A model generated the notes under the pieces. It did no database searches. It worked only from the letters and a program-made list of their open reading frames with translations, and was not told where the DNA came from. The position numbers and the translations under genes are program-made. Below, in pieces: positions 2,795-14,491 of a stretch of DNA of 42,832 nt. Source of the stretch: a virus (taxonomy: Duplodnaviria > Heunggongvirae > Uroviricota > Caudoviricetes); IMG/VR virus record IMGVR_UViG_2541047913_000006. One strand, 5' to 3'. Numbering within the stretch: position 1 is the first letter of the stretch; each line of letters starts with the position of its first letter.

Positions 2795-5387
2795 TTGCAT
2801 ATTCCTTAGCCCAGCGGGGCAGTGATAATGTCTTAATAGCTGGCCATTCATCGGTATTCAGGCAGTCAGACAGGGTTCGCAGATTGCGGTGATATTCCTG
2901 TTGACCTGCCAGTTTTGCTTCTTCGCCCATCATGAAAATTTCAACCGGATAACGTCCGCATTCAATAGTTGTGCTGGCAACCAGAAAAACGAAAGTTGGC
3001 TGCACTCCAAACTGTGCTTCATAACCGTCACTGTAGAATGCATCCTGAACGTGATAGCGGTAGTCGTAATAAGCGGTTTTGAATCGTTGAATATCCGCCG
3101 TAGTTTTCACGTCCATGATCCAGTGAAATTCAGGGATAATTTTGTCCGGACGGCACCGACACAAAATTCCTGTTTCAGGATCTTCCCAGTAAATTGATGA
3201 TTCAGCGTGTCCGGCGCTTTCAACAAGCCATTGCCCCAGCGGCAAAGCCATAACGCTTTGATACATGAGTTCAATTTTCCGGCCTTCTTCCGCAGTGATA
3301 ACCGTTTTTCCTGTGCTTGCGCATTCCATCAGAAACGCTTTCTCTTCTTCTTTTCCGGCGTTTGTACGGCGGTTAAATTCAGGTGCTACGATAAAGCGGT
3401 TACTGAATTCTTCCTGTTCAAGTACCCGGCAGTGGAAAGCAGTTCCTAAATCGAGCGTTTTTGTCTTTGTGGTGTCCACGGGGGCATTTTTACGCCACAA
3501 ATATAGTGCCGGAGTATCAGCAATGTCATCGAGCTGAGACTTACTGATACCGGGACCCGCGTGGTAATTCTCATTCGAAATTCCGTAATAAATACCTGGC
3601 TCTATGTCTTCTACGATTACGGGATCTGCGACTTCGCCAGTTTCATCACTGCAATCGCGATGCGGATCGCTGCCAGCATTCTCATTGTGCGGATGTTCAG
3701 CGCCTTCCATTTCCTCCGGATCATTTTCCTTAGCTTCAACCTGACTCTCTTCATCGAATGTTTCCTGGTATGTTGCGTCGCCCATCACCGCACCACAGTC
3801 AGGGCAGTTATCCCCGCCAGTCTGGCCGCAGGCATTGCAGGCTATTTCCGGTTCCTGTTGCACTACTGGCTCAGGTTGATTCATATCCGGGCTGGTTTTT
3901 TCCGTTTCTGGCTGGTTCTGGTACACACAATCGCGAGTCTGGATCCCCTTTACCCATTTCGGATCGTTCGGGTCGCTAATTCCGTCAACAAATTCACCAC
4001 GTGATGCAGCAAGCAATTTATCGGCATCGACAGGATTTTTTGATGGAATGTTTTTCCGGGCTTCATGGAGTTCTGCCCGCAGTTCCTGATATTTCGCATC
4101 AACAGAATTTACCTGTGACTGAGCATCCAGCGGCTGCGTGTCCTGATGATGTTCAGTTGCGTCCTGTTCCATTGTTTCAGCCTCTCCCTGTTCAACTGCC
4201 GTTGTTCCAGATGGTTGCGGTTTTTCTTCATCATCCTGTTTTCCTTCTTCTGTTACTCGCTGCGGCATCGGGGCAGAGGAGCGACCGCAGGCAATATCCA
4301 CGATTTCCGGATCAGGGTTGGCATGATCGGTTTCAGTCAGTACTTTGTTCAGATATTCAGTGACGTGCGCGGGGATGACCTCGATCCCAATTGGTGCTTC
4401 TTTTACGGACGCAACCACGATGGCGCGGGAATAATCCAGCCCGCCAGGCATGGTGATGAATTTGTCGCGGAAAACAGAAAAGGGCGGTTTATTTTCAGCG
4501 ATAATTTCCTCAATGCGTTTAGCGTGTGCCGGATGAAGGTTATAGATGTCCAGATCCATTGAACGGGCCAGTACGCCAGTGGCTACGTCGCGCGCCAGTG
4601 ACGTCAGATCGTGTACGAAACCTTCGCCGCGATCGGTGAGGTTTCCGCCGCCAGCATTAGCACCGGAAGCCGTGCGAGTGATGTGTGAAACACGATTACC
4701 CTTCATCCACTCTTTTGTCAGCAGTCCTCGATCGGTGTAGTCAGCGTTCAGGTATGCTTCGAAAAAAGCAGTTATCAGTCCCAGGTTTGAATTACCAGGA
4801 TTAGGGAAAACTTTGTCAGTGTCACGAACCAGTTTGTGGAGTTCGCGAATTTCCAGCGGGTCGAGCAGGCTGGTTTTGTGGGAAACAGCCAGGGCAGTAA
4901 CAGCCGGTAGTTCTTCAGCCCGAGCAATGTGTAATGCCTGGAGTCCGTCGCGTGAAACGTGCGTTACCGGTTTTTCGCTGCCGTGTTGAGCAAGCCAACG
5001 AATGGGCAGTTCCTGGCCAGAAATTGGGAGTAGCATATTCTCCTCAATCTCAGTCATGTCTTCGCCGTTGACGTTGGTATTGCCTTGATAGTGAGCGTTG
5101 TCTGGTGCTGCTCCCGGTTTTAGTTCCCATGTCATGGAGTCTTTGCTGAGTTGATAGCGTTCACTCCAGGTAAAATCGATCTCACCTTCAGCGGGCAGGT
5201 CATTAACGACAGGAAAATTCGTGGCAACAGCTTTAAAATAGCTGCTCAGTTTTTTACCTGACTTAACGATCAGGTAGTCCAGAGTGGCACAGGTCGATTC
5301 AAAATCGTTGCTTGCCCACAGGACGACGTCAGGTTCACCGGATGATTTTTTCGCTTTCCGTAACAGGAAGAGTGGTTTTGTGCTCAT
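2787..5387 (-). CDS. recE: Exodeoxyribonuclease VIII RecE (866 aa)
   Basis: 866-aa [23 protein letters not shown]...; acidic central region and C-terminal nuclease domain; length and sequence match RecE as I recall it. Confidence 0.9.
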
Positions 5388-5488
5388 TGTTTTTTAACCT
5401 CAACTCAGATTAAAATTCGTTTTGTTCAGTGAATGATCTTGCCGGATACACACTGTTCATAGCCTGCGTCATACGCAGGCTATTTCTT

Positions 5489-5764
5489 TCAGATTTCACC
5501 TTTTAATTTCATTGCAATTAGAGTTGCCAGAAATTCGGCTTTTTTTTCTGTGGGCAGATTCTTTCCGATATGCACCAGGCACATTTTTTTGACACCTTCA
5601 TCAAGTGTTTTTACGTTGCCTGATGGACCATCGATATCAACCACAGTGAATGGGGTTTCTTTATTTTCTGTTTTAATTACGTAGCCAATGCGCTTTCCTT
5701 CCAGATTCACCTCGTGAACAATGTCATCGGTAGTTACAACAGTGGCTTCATAATTGGTAATCAT
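5489..5764 (-). CDS. racC: RacC protein (91 aa)
   Basis: Internal start MITNYEATVVTTDD of the 107-aa track ORF; position immediately upstream of recE. Confidence 0.7.
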   Translation of the reverse strand: MITNYEATVVTTDDIVHEVNLEGKRIGYVIKTENKETPFTVVDIDGPSGNVKTLDEGVKKMCLVHIGKNLPTEKKAEFLATLIAMKLKGEI

Positions 5765-5838
5765 GTTTTTCTCCTTAATTAAGGTTGAGCGAATACCTGC
5801 CATTTCTGGCATAAATTCAGTTTCGAATAGTCAATTAA

Positions 5839-6009
5839 TTAAAGTTCATGTGCCATCTGGTCTTTTTCGGCACAAGCTTCACTGCAATATTTTCTCGGTT
5901 CGTCTTTTGATAAAATCCCGTGCATGAAGTGAAGCATTCTTTCAATAGCTTTGCTTTCTTCAACGTCTTTTTTGCAAAGGTGGTAAGCACATTTTATTTT
6001 CTTAGTCAT
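5839..6009 (-). CDS. ydaE: Small Cys-rich protein YdaE (56 aa)
   Basis: Not in ORF track (<60 aa); my translation of the reverse complement gives [56 protein letters not shown]; ATGA overlap with kilR stop. Confidence 0.65.
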   Translation of the reverse strand: MTKKIKCAYHLCKKDVEESKAIERMLHFMHGILSKDEPRKYCSEACAEKDQMAHEL

Positions 6010-6230
6010 CACCATGACTCCGCCTTTACAGGTAAACCATCACGACCGAGGAAGACTTTAATCATGCGGTCAGTAATGCATGTTTTTGTGGTCAGGTTAC
6101 GAATATATAGTTTTCGCTTTTTAATATTGTTTGCCGAGGCAATATATGTCCGGCCTTCATGAAGAACATAATCGCCAGGAGTCACACACTGACGTGGTAT
6201 TTCATCAGTTCCGAAGTGATGTGCAATCAT
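6009..6230 (-). CDS. kilR: KilR, FtsZ-inhibiting killing protein (73 aa)
   Basis: [38 protein letters not shown]... matches KilR as I recall it; start at ATG 6228-6230. Confidence 0.85.
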
Positions 6231-6671
6231 AATTATCTCCATTTTTACAAATGAACTTTGTTGATGCGGTGCCTGGTGCCTCCAGGTGACTGCAACCAGT
6301 TAACAATTACAGTCGGCTTTCCCACCCAAACCAATAAGGACTAACATGACTTTTAACTGTGCCACGTGCGCTTAGCCGCATTCACCGCATCACAAAATTC
6401 ACTTTAAAAAGGGCGGACATCAGCCGAACTTCAAGAAAAAAACTGATGCCGCCAGGACTACACACAGCAATGTCGTTATTTACAACCGGAGGCGCACTCC
6501 CACCATTTAAATTTAACAGACAAGACCGACTCTTTATGGATATCGGAAATGCGCCTTCGTGTTGTGCCCGGTTTTATTTCACCACCTCCGGGCTTCGGTG
6601 GTCTCGGCTATACCCCTACAGCGAGAGCTTGTGTTAACATTTCAATACCCTTACAGTTGAGAGTTATTGAT

Positions 6672-7160
6672 ATGTTGGATGTATTTACTCCATTGTTGAA
6701 ATTTTTTGCTAACGAGCCACTCGAAAGACTTATGTATACGATTATCATTTTTGGTCTCACTCTCTGGCTGATACCGAAAGAGTTTACTGTCGCATTCAAT
6801 GCTTATACTGAAATACCTTGGCTCTTTCAGATTATCGTTTTTGCCTTTTCTTTCGTGGTCGCCATTTCCTTCTCAAGATTGCGAGCGCATATTCAAAAGC
6901 ATTATTCATTACTACCAGAGCAACGAGTATTGCTTCGTTTATCTGAGAAAGAAATCGCTGTATTTAAAGATTTCCTTAAAACAGGAAATCTTATTATCAC
7001 TTCTCCTTGCCGTAACCCGGTTATGAAAAAATTAGAACGGAAGGGCATCATTCAACATCAGAGTGATAGCGCAAACTGTTCTTATTATCTCGTCACCGAA
7101 AAATACTCCCATTTTATGAAGTTATTCTGGAACAGCAGGAGTAGACGTTTTAATCGTTAG
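6672..7160 (+). CDS. sieB: Superinfection exclusion protein SieB-like (162 aa, membrane)
   Basis: Internal start MLDVFTPLLKFFANEPLERLMYTIIIFGLTLWLIP; hydrophobic N-terminal helices; position between kil and repressor as in lambda/Rac. Confidence 0.7.
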   Translation: MLDVFTPLLKFFANEPLERLMYTIIIFGLTLWLIPKEFTVAFNAYTEIPWLFQIIVFAFSFVVAISFSRLRAHIQKHYSLLPEQRVLLRLSEKEIAVFKDFLKTGNLIITSPCRNPVMKKLERKGIIQHQSDSANCSYYLVTEKYSHFMKLFWNSRSRRFNR

Positions 7161-7312
7161 CTTACTGTGTGCTTCTCCAACCATCGGCGCGCACCAGTTT
7201 CGGTTTTAAATGTTTTGCTTTTGGTATACGTCATGGCAGTGAACGTTCCATCCTGGTTGGGGAACACGCCGCACACCAGGGATTCGTTGTTGCCGAGGTC
7301 GATTTTTTGCAT
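7157..7312 (-). CDS. ydaF: Small protein YdaF (51 aa)
   Basis: My translation: MQKIDLGNNESLVCGVFPNQDGTFTAMTYTKSKTFKTETGARRWLEKHTVS; synteny with K-12 Rac. Confidence 0.5.
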   Translation of the reverse strand: MQKIDLGNNESLVCGVFPNQDGTFTAMTYTKSKTFKTETGARRWLEKHTVS

Positions 7313-7322
7313 TTTGCGAATC

Positions 7323-7457
7323 TCACATCTTGTTGCTACGTATAGCGACTTCTGCCTGCCAGAGATCCCAGTCGTTGCTGCGTAAAGCCTGCACAGCCTG
7401 GTTGTAAGTGATACCGCAACAATCCATCAAATACTGAACTACTTCGTAATGCACCAT
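7323..7457 (-). CDS. ydaG: Small protein YdaG (44 aa)
   Basis: My translation: MVHYEVVQYLMDCCGITYNQAVQALRSNDWDLWQAEVAIRSNKM; adjacent to ydaF on same strand. Confidence 0.5.
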   Translation of the reverse strand: MVHYEVVQYLMDCCGITYNQAVQALRSNDWDLWQAEVAIRSNKM

Positions 7458-7744
7458 CTTATCTATCCCCTTAACGCCGGGTGGCGGAACTAACTGCTGC
7501 ACTGCAAAATTTGAATCCCGCCGTCATGTTCATACGCCTCGGGCTGGCTACTTAACCCCTGACCACTGCCTGGTAACTCGAAGTATTGCCCGGCGTTCTG
7601 TGGGGCGGGGTGGGTTGGTAGGTATATAATGTACTTTGTGTTCATCATTGTAAAGTACTTTAAGTACATTTTATGTATAAAAAAATGAGACGGGATAAAG
7701 TGAAGCACAAACCCGGAGGGGGACGCTACCGGATTTATGCTGGT

Positions 7745-8164
7745 TTAAGAGGCTTTTTGTTTTTTCTTTCGTGCTAACTCTTCGTAAATTGCATTGTACT
7801 TCTGTTTTTTCTCCTCAAGAGTTTTTAAAAGTTCATCTGTCTCACTGTCAGGGAGCTCGTCCAGAAGGTCAATGATGATTTTTTGTCTTGGATTTAACTC
7901 CTGATAGAAACGTATCTGTCCACTTTCTTCTGTATCCTCTCCCAAAAGATAGGTTGGTGTTGTTCCAATGAGTGTTGCTAATTCCCTTAATTTCTCTCGG
8001 CGAGGAATTGTTTCACCATTAAACCATTTGCTAACCGCTTTTGGTGTTAATTTCATTCGACGGGCAATTTCTGCCTGCCTTCCATGTTGTTCATAACCAG
8101 CGTTTTCACAGGCTAGCGCAAGCCTACTGGCGAACTCTTTACGCGCTTTATCTTCATGAACCAT
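7745..8164 (-). CDS. racR: Prophage repressor, HTH XRE family (RacR-like)
   Basis: 139-aa ORF with N-terminal HTH (GRQAEIARRMKLTPKAVSKWFNGE); divergent from ydaS/ydaT, typical immunity-region layout. Confidence 0.8.
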   Translation of the reverse strand: MVHEDKARKEFASRLALACENAGYEQHGRQAEIARRMKLTPKAVSKWFNGETIPRREKLRELATLIGTTPTYLLGEDTEESGQIRFYQELNPRQKIIIDLLDELPDSETDELLKTLEEKKQKYNAIYEELARKKKQKAS

Positions 8165-8243
8165 AAGTTCAATGATATTCGCTCTTGAATGTACTGTCAG
8201 TTCTGTTATAGCATGTACTCAAAGTTCACATTGTGAGGGTGAT
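8165..8243. promoter_or_regulatory. Divergent promoter/operator region between racR and ydaS
   Basis: 79-bp intergenic region with symmetric motif arrangement: AAGTTCA (8165-8171), ATGTACT (8189-8195), ATGTACT (8213-8219), AAGTTCA (8222-8228). Confidence 0.5.
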
Positions 8244-8498
8244 ATGAACCAGAAAACACTTGAAGATGTAATCAAAACTGTTCGCGTTTCTGTTGTGGCC
8301 GACGTTTGTGGTGTCAGCCAAAGAGCAATCTACAAATGGATGGATAACGGAAAATTGCCTCGCACAGAATATACCGGCGAAACAAATTACGCTGAAAAAA
8401 TCGCTCATGCATCAAACGGATTATTTTCTGCCGATGCAATTTTAACTATTGGCAGAAATAAAACTACTACGAAAAAGCTGATGGGAGTTGATTCATGA
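8244..8498 (+). CDS. ydaS: Cro-like HTH protein YdaS
   Basis: HTH (VSQRAIYKWMDNGKLP); start placed at ATG 8244 (RBS GAGGGTGA upstream) rather than track start 8172, which would sit 7 bp from the racR start. Confidence 0.65.
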   Translation: MNQKTLEDVIKTVRVSVVADVCGVSQRAIYKWMDNGKLPRTEYTGETNYAEKIAHASNGLFSADAILTIGRNKTTTKKLMGVDS

Positions 8499-8917
8499 AA
8501 ATCAAGCATGAGCACATCGAATCAGTGTTGTTAGCCCTGGCAGCCGAAAAAGGGCAGGCGTGGGTCGCTAACGCAATTACTGAAGAATATCTGCGCCAGG
8601 GGGGCGGCGAATTGCCCCTGGTACCAGGCAAGGACTGGAACAATCAGCAGAATATCTATCATCGTTGGTTGAAAGGTGAAACGAATGCGCAAAGGGAAAA
8701 AATTCAGAAACTGATCCCTGCGGTTCTGGCAATTCTTCCTCGCGAGCTGCGTCACCGACTCTGCATCTTCGATACCCTGGAACGCCGTGCATTACTGGCG
8801 GCACAGGATGCACTGAGTACGGCAATTGATGCGCATGATGATGCAGTCCAGGCCGTTTACCGTAAAGCACATTTCAGCGGCGGCGGTTCTCCTAGCGATT
8901 CTGTCGTAGTGCATTGA
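8495..8917 (+). CDS. ydaT: YdaT, CII-like regulator/toxin of Rac (140 aa)
   Basis: MKIKHEHIESVLLALAAEKGQAWV...; ATGA overlap with ydaS stop, indicating translational coupling. Confidence 0.8.
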   Translation: MKIKHEHIESVLLALAAEKGQAWVANAITEEYLRQGGGELPLVPGKDWNNQQNIYHRWLKGETNAQREKIQKLIPAVLAILPRELRHRLCIFDTLERRALLAAQDALSTAIDAHDDAVQAVYRKAHFSGGGSPSDSVVVH

Positions 8918-8994
8918 TTGAAATTAATCGTACCGAACTGTTTTGTTCGGTATCAGTTAAATGTAACGCTGCGAGCGTTACAAGGTGAAAACAA

Positions 8995-9783
8995 ATGGCT
9001 TCAAACTGGATAAAGCTCGAAGTTATTACGCCGGATAAGCCGGAAATATTCAGGCTTGCTGAGATTCTGAATATTGATCCAGATGCCGCATTAGGGAAAG
9101 TCATTCGCTTCTGGGCATGGGCGGATCAACAAATGATAGACGGTAACGCAGAGTGTAACGCTCGCGGCGTTACAAAAAGTGCAATAGATCGCATCACTTT
9201 TATGGCTGGTTTTGCTGATGCGTTAATTCAGGTTGGATGGCTGGTCGAAACTAATGGTGTGTTGTCGCTTCCTAACTTTGAGCGCCATAACGGGAAAAGC
9301 TCTAAAAAACGGGCGGTTACAAACGAGAGAGTAACAAAAATACGAGAACTGAAACGAAAAGGTAACGCTGCCAGCGTTACAAAAACGGATCAAAAAGCGT
9401 TACCAGAGGAAGAGAAAGAGGAAGATATAAATACTTATCTCCCCCTAAATCCCCCTCGCCAAAAACGAGCGTCTAAAAAATTCGAACCGGAGGCTATCGA
9501 GCTGCCTGACTGGTTGCCGGAAACACTCTGGCATGAGTGGGTTCAGTTCAGGCAGGCATTGCGAAAACCGATTCGAACGGAGCAGGGCGCTAACGGGGCG
9601 ATACGGGAGCTGGAAAAATTCCGCCAGCAGGGTTTTTCACCTGAGCAGGTGATTCGACACAGCATCGCCAACGAATACCAGGGCTTGTTCGCGCCGAAAG
9701 GTGTTCGACCTGAGACGTTACTCCGACAGGTTAACACCGTCTCGTTACCGGATAGTGCGATCCCGCCAGGCTTCAGGGGGTAA
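8995..9783 (+). CDS. ydaU: Phage replication initiation protein (YdaU-like, O-like)
   Basis: 262-aa ORF directly upstream of the DnaC-like loader; contains and is preceded by 19-bp palindromic repeats (candidate origin/iterons). Confidence 0.65.
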   Translation: MASNWIKLEVITPDKPEIFRLAEILNIDPDAALGKVIRFWAWADQQMIDGNAECNARGVTKSAIDRITFMAGFADALIQVGWLVETNGVLSLPNFERHNGKSSKKRAVTNERVTKIRELKRKGNAASVTKTDQKALPEEEKEEDINTYLPLNPPRQKRASKKFEPEAIELPDWLPETLWHEWVQFRQALRKPIRTEQGANGAIRELEKFRQQGFSPEQVIRHSIANEYQGLFAPKGVRPETLLRQVNTVSLPDSAIPPGFRG

Positions 9784-14275: not shown

Positions 14276-14491
14276 ATGAAATCCATGGACAAAATTTCAA
14301 CAGGCATTGCCTACGGCACCTCCGCAGGCAGTGCTGGCTACTGGTTTTTACAGTTGCTCGATAGAGTAACTCCGTCACAGTGGGCTGCAATCGGTGTGCT
14401 GGGTAGTCTGGTATTTGGCCTACTGACGTACCTGACAAACCTTTATTTCAAGATTAAAGAAGATAAGCGCAAGGCTGCGAGAGGTGAATAA
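14276..14491 (+). CDS. Holin (class II, EssD/S21-like, 71 aa)
   Basis: [71 protein letters not shown]; two TM segments; dual-start motif MKSM; RBS GGAGGTGAG; 1-nt overlap (TAATG) with endolysin. Confidence 0.8.

Follow-up and report, generated by a model that had tools for sequence, protein, structure and literature searches.

Five 15-bp palindromes flanking a short repressor gene as probable operators of an HK022/933W-type immunity switch in a Rac-type Escherichia coli prophage

Two heptamers, ATGTACT and AAGTTCA, recur on both sides of a repressor gene in a prophage of the Rac type, which raises the questions of whether they are operators, which regulator would bind them and whether they form two sets in the manner of lambda OL and OR. 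The window analyzed here is the whole 42,832-nucleotide stretch of IMG/VR record IMGVR_UViG_2541047913_000006. Its gene order is intR, xisR, ralR, recT, recE, kilR, sieB, ydaF, ydaG, immunity region, ydaT and a dnaC-like gene. The prophage has the Rac-type location at ttcA, and the region of interest is a cassette between ydaG and ydaT with the following components.

7621..8488: immunity cassette (OL, repressor, OR, cro), 868 bp; edges from the comparison with K-12
7745..8164, minus strand: repressor gene, 139 aa, WP_000233319.1; Pfam HTH_3; phrog_5736
8244..8498, plus strand: gene for a Cro homologue, 84 aa, 62% identity to HK022 Cro (E = 1e-34); phrog_35

A sequence-only reading of this DNA had placed ATGTACT at 7629-7635, 8189-8195 and 8213-8219 on the plus strand and at 7663-7669 on the minus strand, and AAGTTCA at 8165-8171 and 8222-8228, and all of these copies are where it put them. 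It had also picked out an inverted repeat, AATGTACTT / AAGTACATT (7628-7636 / 7662-7670), which a repeat search recovered and which can be extended to 13 nt with 92% complementarity (arms 7624-7636 and 7662-7674). Four of the five ATGTACT copies of the window lie in the immunity region. In the 42.8-kb window, the five copies compare with 3.2 expected, a number reached by 19 of 100 shuffles and therefore not significant, and the 12 copies of AAGTTCA (6.6 expected) are not significant as a heptamer either. With heptamer counts at chance, a signal emerges only once each heptamer is treated as one half of a 15-bp palindrome. Indeed, TGWACT-N3-AGTWCA with at most one mismatch has exactly five sites in the 42.8-kb window, where 0.29 are expected, and none of 100 shuffles reached five. 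All five are found within 600 bp, on both sides of the 139-aa repressor gene. They also rank among the top six positions of the window with a position weight matrix trained only on the OR sites of three other phages, and all five fit, with at most one mismatch, the 15-bp operator defined by G-W-A-C at positions 2-5 and an A/T centre (PMC3317979). ATGTACT and AAGTTCA are best read as half-sites of this palindrome, with the consensus TGWACY-nWn-RGTWCA. We named the sites according to their place relative to the repressor gene.

7630..7644: candidate operator OL1, TGTACTTTGTGTTCA on the plus strand, TGAACACAAAGTACA on the minus strand; pattern match with one mismatch
7654..7668: candidate operator OL2, AGTACTTTAAGTACA on the plus strand, TGTACTTAAAGTACT on the minus strand; pattern match and alignment
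8157..8171: candidate operator OR3, TGAACCATAAGTTCA; pattern match and top score with the independent weight matrix
8190..8204: candidate operator OR2, TGTACTGTCAGTTCT; 24 bp from OR1 and 33 bp from OR3
8214..8228: candidate operator OR1, TGTACTCAAAGTTCA; perfect consensus match, at the presumed PR transcript start

The operator unit had been taken to be the heptamer, at two sites; it is instead the 15-bp inverted repeat, in a set of three plus two. The symmetric arrangement AAGTTCA-ATGTACT-ATGTACT-AAGTTCA noticed earlier does exist, as a product of the adjacent OR3, OR2 and OR1. These three sites lie between the divergent repressor and cro genes at distances of 24 and 33 bp, with OR3 over the repressor ATG. 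Across the repressor gene, OL1 and OL2, a pair as in 933W, lie 24 bp apart over a leftward promoter. The core idea that one regulator has operator sets on both sides of the repressor gene, as lambda does with OL and OR, was upheld. The likeness to lambda spacing holds for the flanking of the repressor gene but not for the separation, which is about 0.5 kb instead of the 2.3 kb of lambda. The centre-to-centre distance of OR1 and OR2 in lambda is 24 bp, the same as for OR1-OR2 and OL1-OL2 here, and this spacing is compatible with pairwise cooperativity. Neither an OL3 nor an HK022-like far-right operator was found in the window at up to two mismatches. We consider it very likely that an HK022/933W-type lambdoid immunity switch uses the five motifs as its operators.

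Which proteins would use these sites? The repressor had been taken for RacR and the divergent gene for YdaS, and neither assignment was borne out: 12 of 33 HTH residues match K-12 RacR, and the best match to K-12 YdaS comprises 6 of 18 residues (E = 0.028). The K-12 RacR operator is WTAGGC-n3-GCCTAW (PMC9638921). Six such operators were found in the K-12 control and none, with up to one mismatch, in positions 7600-8260; the single match at this threshold in the whole window, at 14301, is at chance level. What the locus shares with the RacR/YdaS module is the Rac-type location, while orthology and operators are lacking. Protein and operator comparisons identify the gene pair as a cI/Cro switch of HK022 specificity and not as RacR/YdaS. 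In its literal form, the earlier model made ATGTACT and AAGTTCA the symmetric recognition units of RacR or YdaS. Although the heptamers are present where described, their chance-level counts, the identity of the proteins and the absence of the RacR operator leave this model with hardly any probability. Moreover, the 15-bp dyad explains every heptamer, the fifth site at 7654-7668 that had been missed and the left half of 8157-8171. We rejected the literal heptamer model, since the sequence comparisons already refute it.

Candidate promoters and neighboring signals were mapped as follows.

7626..7654, minus strand: PL-like promoter; -35 TTTACA at 7654..7649, 17-nt spacer, -10 CATTAT at 7631..7626
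7704..7741, minus strand: RNA hairpin directly after the repressor stop codon; folding -20.5 kcal/mol, z = -3.98
8172..8200, minus strand: PRM-like promoter; -35 CTGACA at 8200..8195, 17-nt spacer, -10 TATCAT at 8177..8172
8185..8212, plus strand: probable PR promoter, assigned by eye; -35 TTGAAT at 8185-8190, 16-nt spacer, TG-n-TATAGC at 8204-8212
8488..8505: YdaT box TTGATT-N6-AATCAA, overlapping the start codon of ydaT at the right cassette edge; perfect match

The PL-like promoter (9 of 12 matches in a promoter scan) would read leftward into ydaG, ydaF, kilR and recET from a presumed transcription start. OL1 overlaps its spacer and -10 and aligns with OL1 of HK022 and Omnitron, and OL2 adjoins its -35. 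Its hexamers are conserved in HK022, Omnitron, Salmonella and the IMG/VR loci among the matches listed. A plus-strand TATAAT beside the left inverted repeat had been pointed out at 7626-7631. The hexamer is present one base away, at 7625-7630, where the promoter scan called no plus-strand promoter; it is not the relevant promoter element, as the conserved hexamers are on the minus strand. On the right side, the PRM-like promoter (10 of 12 matches) has its -35 inside OR2, and phi345, a phage of the 933W type, has an annotated promoter in the equivalent place. Transcription from PRM is predicted to start at or next to the A of the repressor ATG, giving a leaderless mRNA, as described for lambda cI, for paaR2 (PMC8630535) and for racR P3 of K-12 (PMC9638921). 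OR3 overlaps both this start codon (8162-8164) and the presumed +1. The PR candidate aligns with TTGACT/CATAAT of HK022 and probably reads rightward into cro and ydaT. It fell below the threshold of the promoter scan, which makes the hexamer assignment uncertain. Its -10, near 8207-8214, is either TATAGC or, after an 18-nt spacer, TAGCAT, and fits the consensus poorly. The YdaT box follows a published motif (PMC9986795; PMC11879457) and is the site of a separate regulator, outside the repressor operator set. The hairpin after the repressor gene is a possible terminator of the repressor transcript, at which a terminator scan made no call. Separately, an Rfam scan of positions 5000-9500 gave only sub-threshold DicF-like and STnc100-like matches, outside the operator finding.

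The cassette stands out from its surroundings. Positions 5001-7620 are 99.7% identical to K-12 Rac and positions 8489-8915, which begin with the ydaT start, are 92.5% identical, while no match to K-12 Rac DNA was found for 7621-8488. The edges are just outside OL1 (7621) and just past cro (8488), where those of a lambdoid immunity region classically lie. DNA matches to HK022 within the cassette are limited to 7625-7683 (80% identity) and 8004-8414 (70% identity), with none in the part coding for the repressor C-terminal domain. Judged by these boundaries, the cassette has been swapped into an otherwise K-12-like Rac backbone. It is present in 1047 of 5426 complete E. coli genomes, and most copies are at least 96.7% identical. 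A literature search for the repressor accession found nothing; to our knowledge, this specific cassette has not been described before, and its public annotation is generic.

To examine conservation, we aligned the OR of the window with those of a JGI relative and two Salmonella prophages (repressors 89% and 62-65% identical to that of the window, respectively), Klebsiella phage 2b, Omnitron, HK022 and phi345. From OR1 to OR3 the alignment is free of gaps, except for one base in phi345, and the register is identical throughout. In phi345, 15-bp oR1-oR3 are annotated at the aligned positions, spaced by 24 and 32 bp and with oR3 over the ATG. For the left pair of the window, the counterparts in HK022 and Omnitron are OL2 and OL1, and the alignment includes the PL hexamers. 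All 66 half-sites of seven immunity regions have G2, A4 and C5, and only A or T is seen at the centre. Invariant columns account for 52 of 60 half-site columns versus 21 of 51 others (Mann-Whitney p = 4e-7). Site for site, this layout recurs in HK022, in 933W-type phages and in phages of Citrobacter, Klebsiella and Salmonella.

We then scanned IMG/VR with the exact OR2-18 nt-OR3 arrangement as the query, which matched at least 120 contigs. Among the matches listed, OR1 is perfect in 118 of 120 loci. The repressor ORF starting from the ATG inside OR3 codes for 139-142 aa in 63 of the contigs listed and for 233-245 aa, the S24 type, in 49. Downstream of the repressor, 95 contigs among those listed have the OL pair (24 bp apart), at a distance of 501-3091 bp and beyond any intervening cargo. 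Such cargo is seen in the Salmonella relatives, in which a higBA cassette lies between repressor and OL and the operators are kept at its far side. OL3 is present in 36 of 42 long-repressor loci and in 0 of 53 short-repressor loci among the matches listed.

This record can be set against the idea that the operators are relics of a cryptic prophage, no longer bound or needed, and that their conservation merely appears so because of recent spread. The prophage is of the Rac/Sp10 type, and the Sp10 repressor, which has no peptidase domain, was scored as 'defective' (PMC2669165). The identity of at least 96.7% among most E. coli copies implies that little time has elapsed, one 96.7% variant has G in place of the otherwise invariant A4 in OL1, and the -10 of PR is weak. 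However, the short-repressor loci have at least 19 different OL sequences, in which the half-sites and the -35 are fixed and the central triplets and inter-site spacer vary, and the Salmonella relatives, although only 62-65% identical, keep all five sites. Selection should also act against loss of repression, because kilR lies downstream of the cassette, as does ydaT, whose product is toxic in K-12 (PMC9638921). We regard the relic explanation as very improbable and retain the reading as operators of a lambdoid switch.

The repressor itself combines an N-terminal HTH domain of the HK022/933W type with a linker and a C-terminal domain made of helices. Over its first 75 residues, identity is 46-51% to cI of HK022 and 933W-type phages (51% for 933W) and 63-71% to the repressors of Klebsiella phage 2b LV-2017 and Citrobacter phage Omnitron. 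Between its recognition helix, TPKAVSKWFNGE, and that of HK022, TPKAISKWFNGE, there is a single, conservative residue change. K42 and K46 are kept in the alignment with HK022 and 933W; in a model of the 933W repressor, both touch operator positions 2-5, a role that mutation confirmed for K46 (PMC3317979). Among the short-form homologues, residues T40-R56 do not vary. The locus has both a cognate repressor HTH with the contact lysines and a Cro homologue, as the HK022/933W type does.

The similarity ends after the HTH domain. Pfam shows only HTH families in the repressor, and the alignment has no counterpart of the S24 peptidase domain. Beyond residue ~80, the AF2 model has a disordered linker followed by helices at 92-103 and 106-138. 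This C-terminal module matches phrog_5736 and recurs at the C-terminal end of small proteins in 37 clusters, whose HTH N-termini vary. A PDB sequence search with the repressor had the P22 C2 N-terminal domain as its sole match (E = 0.006). With the AF2 model as query, Foldseek found nothing in PDB beyond generic XRE-HTH matches, with SinR-like and arbitrium-phage repressor architectures at weak E-values.

Could the sites be bound mainly by the Cro homologue or another factor, the 139-aa protein having lost its oligomerisation domain and no longer binding as a dimer? It is true that the HK022 and 933W repressors dimerise through the S24 domain, to which this C-terminal domain is unrelated, and that Cro co-varies with the operators as much as the repressor does. 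Yet conservation is strong in the N-terminal domain and the recognition helix, with T40-R56 invariant, and a conserved helical C-terminal module shared by many small HTH proteins fits an alternative dimerisation domain. Furthermore, the position of OR3 over the repressor's own ATG makes sense solely for autoregulation. We give this alternative only a slim chance, and the 139-aa repressor remains the preferred ligand. Because its C-terminal domain differs, dimerisation, pairwise cooperativity and OL-OR looping, the last of which was shown for HK022 CI (PMC8053113), are not transferable from HK022 and 933W.

A repressor without the S24 domain should not respond to RecA. This expectation agrees with reports on Sp10, whose type of repressor lacks the peptidase motif and is not inducible by mitomycin C (PMC2669165). 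Sp10 of O157 Sakai, which sits at the Rac attachment site, is able to lysogenise K-12 alongside Rac (PMC2669165). Exactly the same cassette as here is found at ttcA in an O157:H7 genome. No LexA box of the exact pattern CTGT-N8-ACAG, a possible mark of an SOS-controlled antirepressor, was found.

From the sites, their conservation and spacing and the protein homologies found here, and with binding, transcription starts and the order of site filling extrapolated from HK022 and 933W, we propose how the switch may work. Dimers of the 139-aa repressor would most likely bind the five sites, and the divergent Cro homologue would very probably bind them as well. Occupation of OR1 and OR2, 24 bp apart, by repressor dimers would block the rightward cro/ydaT promoter; OR2 additionally overlaps the -35 of the putative leftward repressor promoter. 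By covering the start of the probably leaderless repressor mRNA and its ATG, OR3 would shut this promoter at high repressor levels, and its occupancy would amount to negative autoregulation. OL1 and OL2 would cover the leftward promoter of the ydaG-ydaF-kilR-recET operon.

A repressor of HK022 specificity without the RecA-cleavable domain is present in about 1 in 5 complete E. coli genomes, O157:H7 included. These findings correct how a very common prophage module of E. coli is annotated, so far as a 'helix-turn-helix' gene pair, and the operator and promoter map offers a basis to study the control of kilR, recET and ydaT in carrier strains. The operator set and the DNA-binding domain travel as a unit while the repressor C-terminal domain is exchanged, an exchange that would decide the prophage's ability to respond to SOS. 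The prophage is predicted to exclude phages of HK022-type immunity. A more speculative and, in our opinion, rather unlikely extension is SOS-insensitive repression in trans of HK022-type phages, perhaps partly including 933W-type Stx phages through the common G-W-A-C core. The basis of this cross-immunity idea is the similarity of recognition helix and operators. If it were true, incoming or resident phages with the same operators would meet constitutive immunity or dampened induction, and the consistent absence of OL3 wherever the repressor is short would mean a switch without HK022-style higher-order cooperativity. The known principles of lambdoid switches are unchanged by our findings.

The closest known system is that of HK022. 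In its account of the HK022 immunity region, PMC8053113, citing Carlson & Little 1993, describes cI, cro, OL1-3 and OR1-3, with OL3 and a further site to the right of OR. Applied to HK022, our pattern recovers both, OL3 at 53 bp from OL2 and the other site ~270 bp to the right of OR. Both loci share the 15-bp operator consensus, the OR1-24-OR2-33-OR3 layout with OR3 over the cI ATG, the OL2-24-OL1 arrangement around -35 TTTACA and -10 CATYAT, and DNA that is 70-80% identical over OL and over the stretch from the N-terminal domain through OR to cro. They differ in the repressor, which ends here in a 60-aa helical module and in HK022 in the S24 autocleavage and oligomerisation domain. In addition, OL3 (in HK022 53 bp from OL2) is missing here, as is an operator downstream of cro like the far-right one of HK022 (L005 1164). 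Cro is followed by ydaT and not by an HK022-type cII, and OL and OR are separated by ~0.5 kb, versus ~0.78 kb in HK022.

933W has five natural 15-bp operators, three OR and two OL, with conserved positions 2-5 (PMC3317979). The present prophage resembles it in this 3 + 2 set, in the 15-bp symmetry on a central A/T, in G-W-A-C followed by T/C at position 6 and in the conserved K42 and K46. In contrast, position 1 is C in several 933W half-sites and never in the 66 HK022-type half-sites, residue 41 is S in 933W and P here, and the 933W repressor has an S24 domain and is SOS-inducible. The operator family, the 15-bp dyad, the 3 + 2 or 3 + 3 layout and the contact residues are already established for HK022 and 933W.

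The PaaR2/YdaS/YdaT system of CP-933P (PMC8630535) also belongs to a cryptic lambdoid prophage, with a repressor and a Cro analogue that bind OR, a demonstrated OL/PL across the repressor operon, a leaderless repressor mRNA and YdaT as cII analogue. Its toxin-antitoxin cassette between repressor and OL recalls the Salmonella relatives of the present cassette. Its operators, however, are 18-bp palindromes with the half-site GTTTAGTAA, and its OR has four inverted repeats. K-12 RacR/YdaS/YdaT (PMC9638921; PMC5700373) lies in the same prophage backbone and likewise occupies the position between ydaG and ydaT. It also has 6-n3-6 inverted repeats, three to four of them in the divergent intergenic region and one over the repressor ATG, and a repressor without a peptidase domain. 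We found two further RacR-type sites at the homologous left position of K-12 Rac, where silencing of racR derepresses the leftward genes too (bioRxiv 10.64898/2026.09.06.749655). However, the K-12 repressor and Cro analogue are unrelated in sequence to those described here, and their operator is TAGGC-n3-GCCTA. Since the operator sequences differ, K-12 Rac and the present prophage should be heteroimmune. The cassette is a functional parallel to K-12 RacR/YdaS and not a member of that module.

The Rac prophage of Escherichia coli K-12 MG1655 (locus L002) carries, downstream of racR and with a spacing of 25 bp, two RacR-type inverted repeats whose position is homologous to that of the OL pair of the window:

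L002 3631-3643, RacR-type inverted repeat TAGGTAATGCCTA
L002 3656-3668, RacR-type inverted repeat TAGGCTATGCCTA

The sites described in the RacR operator paper are the racR-ydaS intergenic ones only (PMC9638921). This repeat pair is probably the OL of K-12 Rac, which would be consistent with the finding that racR silencing derepresses kilR, recET and ydaG (bioRxiv 10.64898/2026.09.06.749655).

Among the IMG/VR matches listed, a third left operator, OL3, was found 53 bp from OL2 in 36 of the 42 loci encoding an S24-domain repressor, and in none of the 53 whose repressor is the short 139-aa form, one of which is the window (7669-7745). In these loci, loss of the third left operator tracks the exchange of the C-terminal domain. 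In the short repressor, residues 75-139 (window 7745-7942) form a helical C-terminal module with the motif RQ..I..LLDELP.SE.DELLKTLEEKK. The same module is also C-terminal in 37 clusters of 120-185-aa proteins with varying HTH N-termini, and it is a portable domain, possibly serving in oligomerisation or antirepressor docking.

In E. coli strain 504211 (L013), a 96.7% variant of the cassette adjoins a ydfA-type DUF1391 gene. In one of its OL1 half-sites the otherwise invariant A4, corresponding to window 7633, is changed from A to G. Fourteen of its 22 differences fall within 7615-7723 (window numbering), and this clustering, together with the A4 change, may mean that its OL is in decay or has recombined. 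At the right-hand edge, similarity to K-12 Rac restarts at 8489, and this mosaic junction coincides with a YdaT box:

window 8488-8505, YdaT box TTGATT-CATGAA-AATCAA, perfect match, over the ydaT start codon

Left of the cassette, between sieB and kilR, two Rfam matches were sub-threshold, namely DicF (window 6411-6466, minus strand), which reached 39 bits where the gathering score is 48, and STnc100 (6223-6409, minus strand), which reached 35.5 where it is 47. The K-12 annotation places the small RNA KilS in the sieB-kilR interval.

Several features lie between the repressor gene and OL, or overlap the OL/PL region:

window 7704-7741, minus strand, stable RNA hairpin directly 3' of the repressor stop codon (-20.5 kcal/mol, z = -3.98)
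window 7490-7708, minus strand, 72-aa ORF overlapping the OL/PL region, mechanical call
window 7673-7777, plus strand, 34-aa ORF overlapping the OL/PL region, mechanical call
L007 3053-3720, Salmonella enterica prophage, inserted higB-higA toxin-antitoxin pair, separating the short repressor gene from OL
L008 3088-3755, Salmonella enterica prophage, inserted higB-higA toxin-antitoxin pair, separating the short repressor gene from OL

The predicted hairpin, which has no clean U tract, may end the repressor transcript ahead of OL. Neither ORF has a RefSeq annotation, and both are most likely spurious. The slot filled by higB-higA in the Salmonella prophages is that of rexAB in lambda and of paaA2-parE2 in CP-933P.
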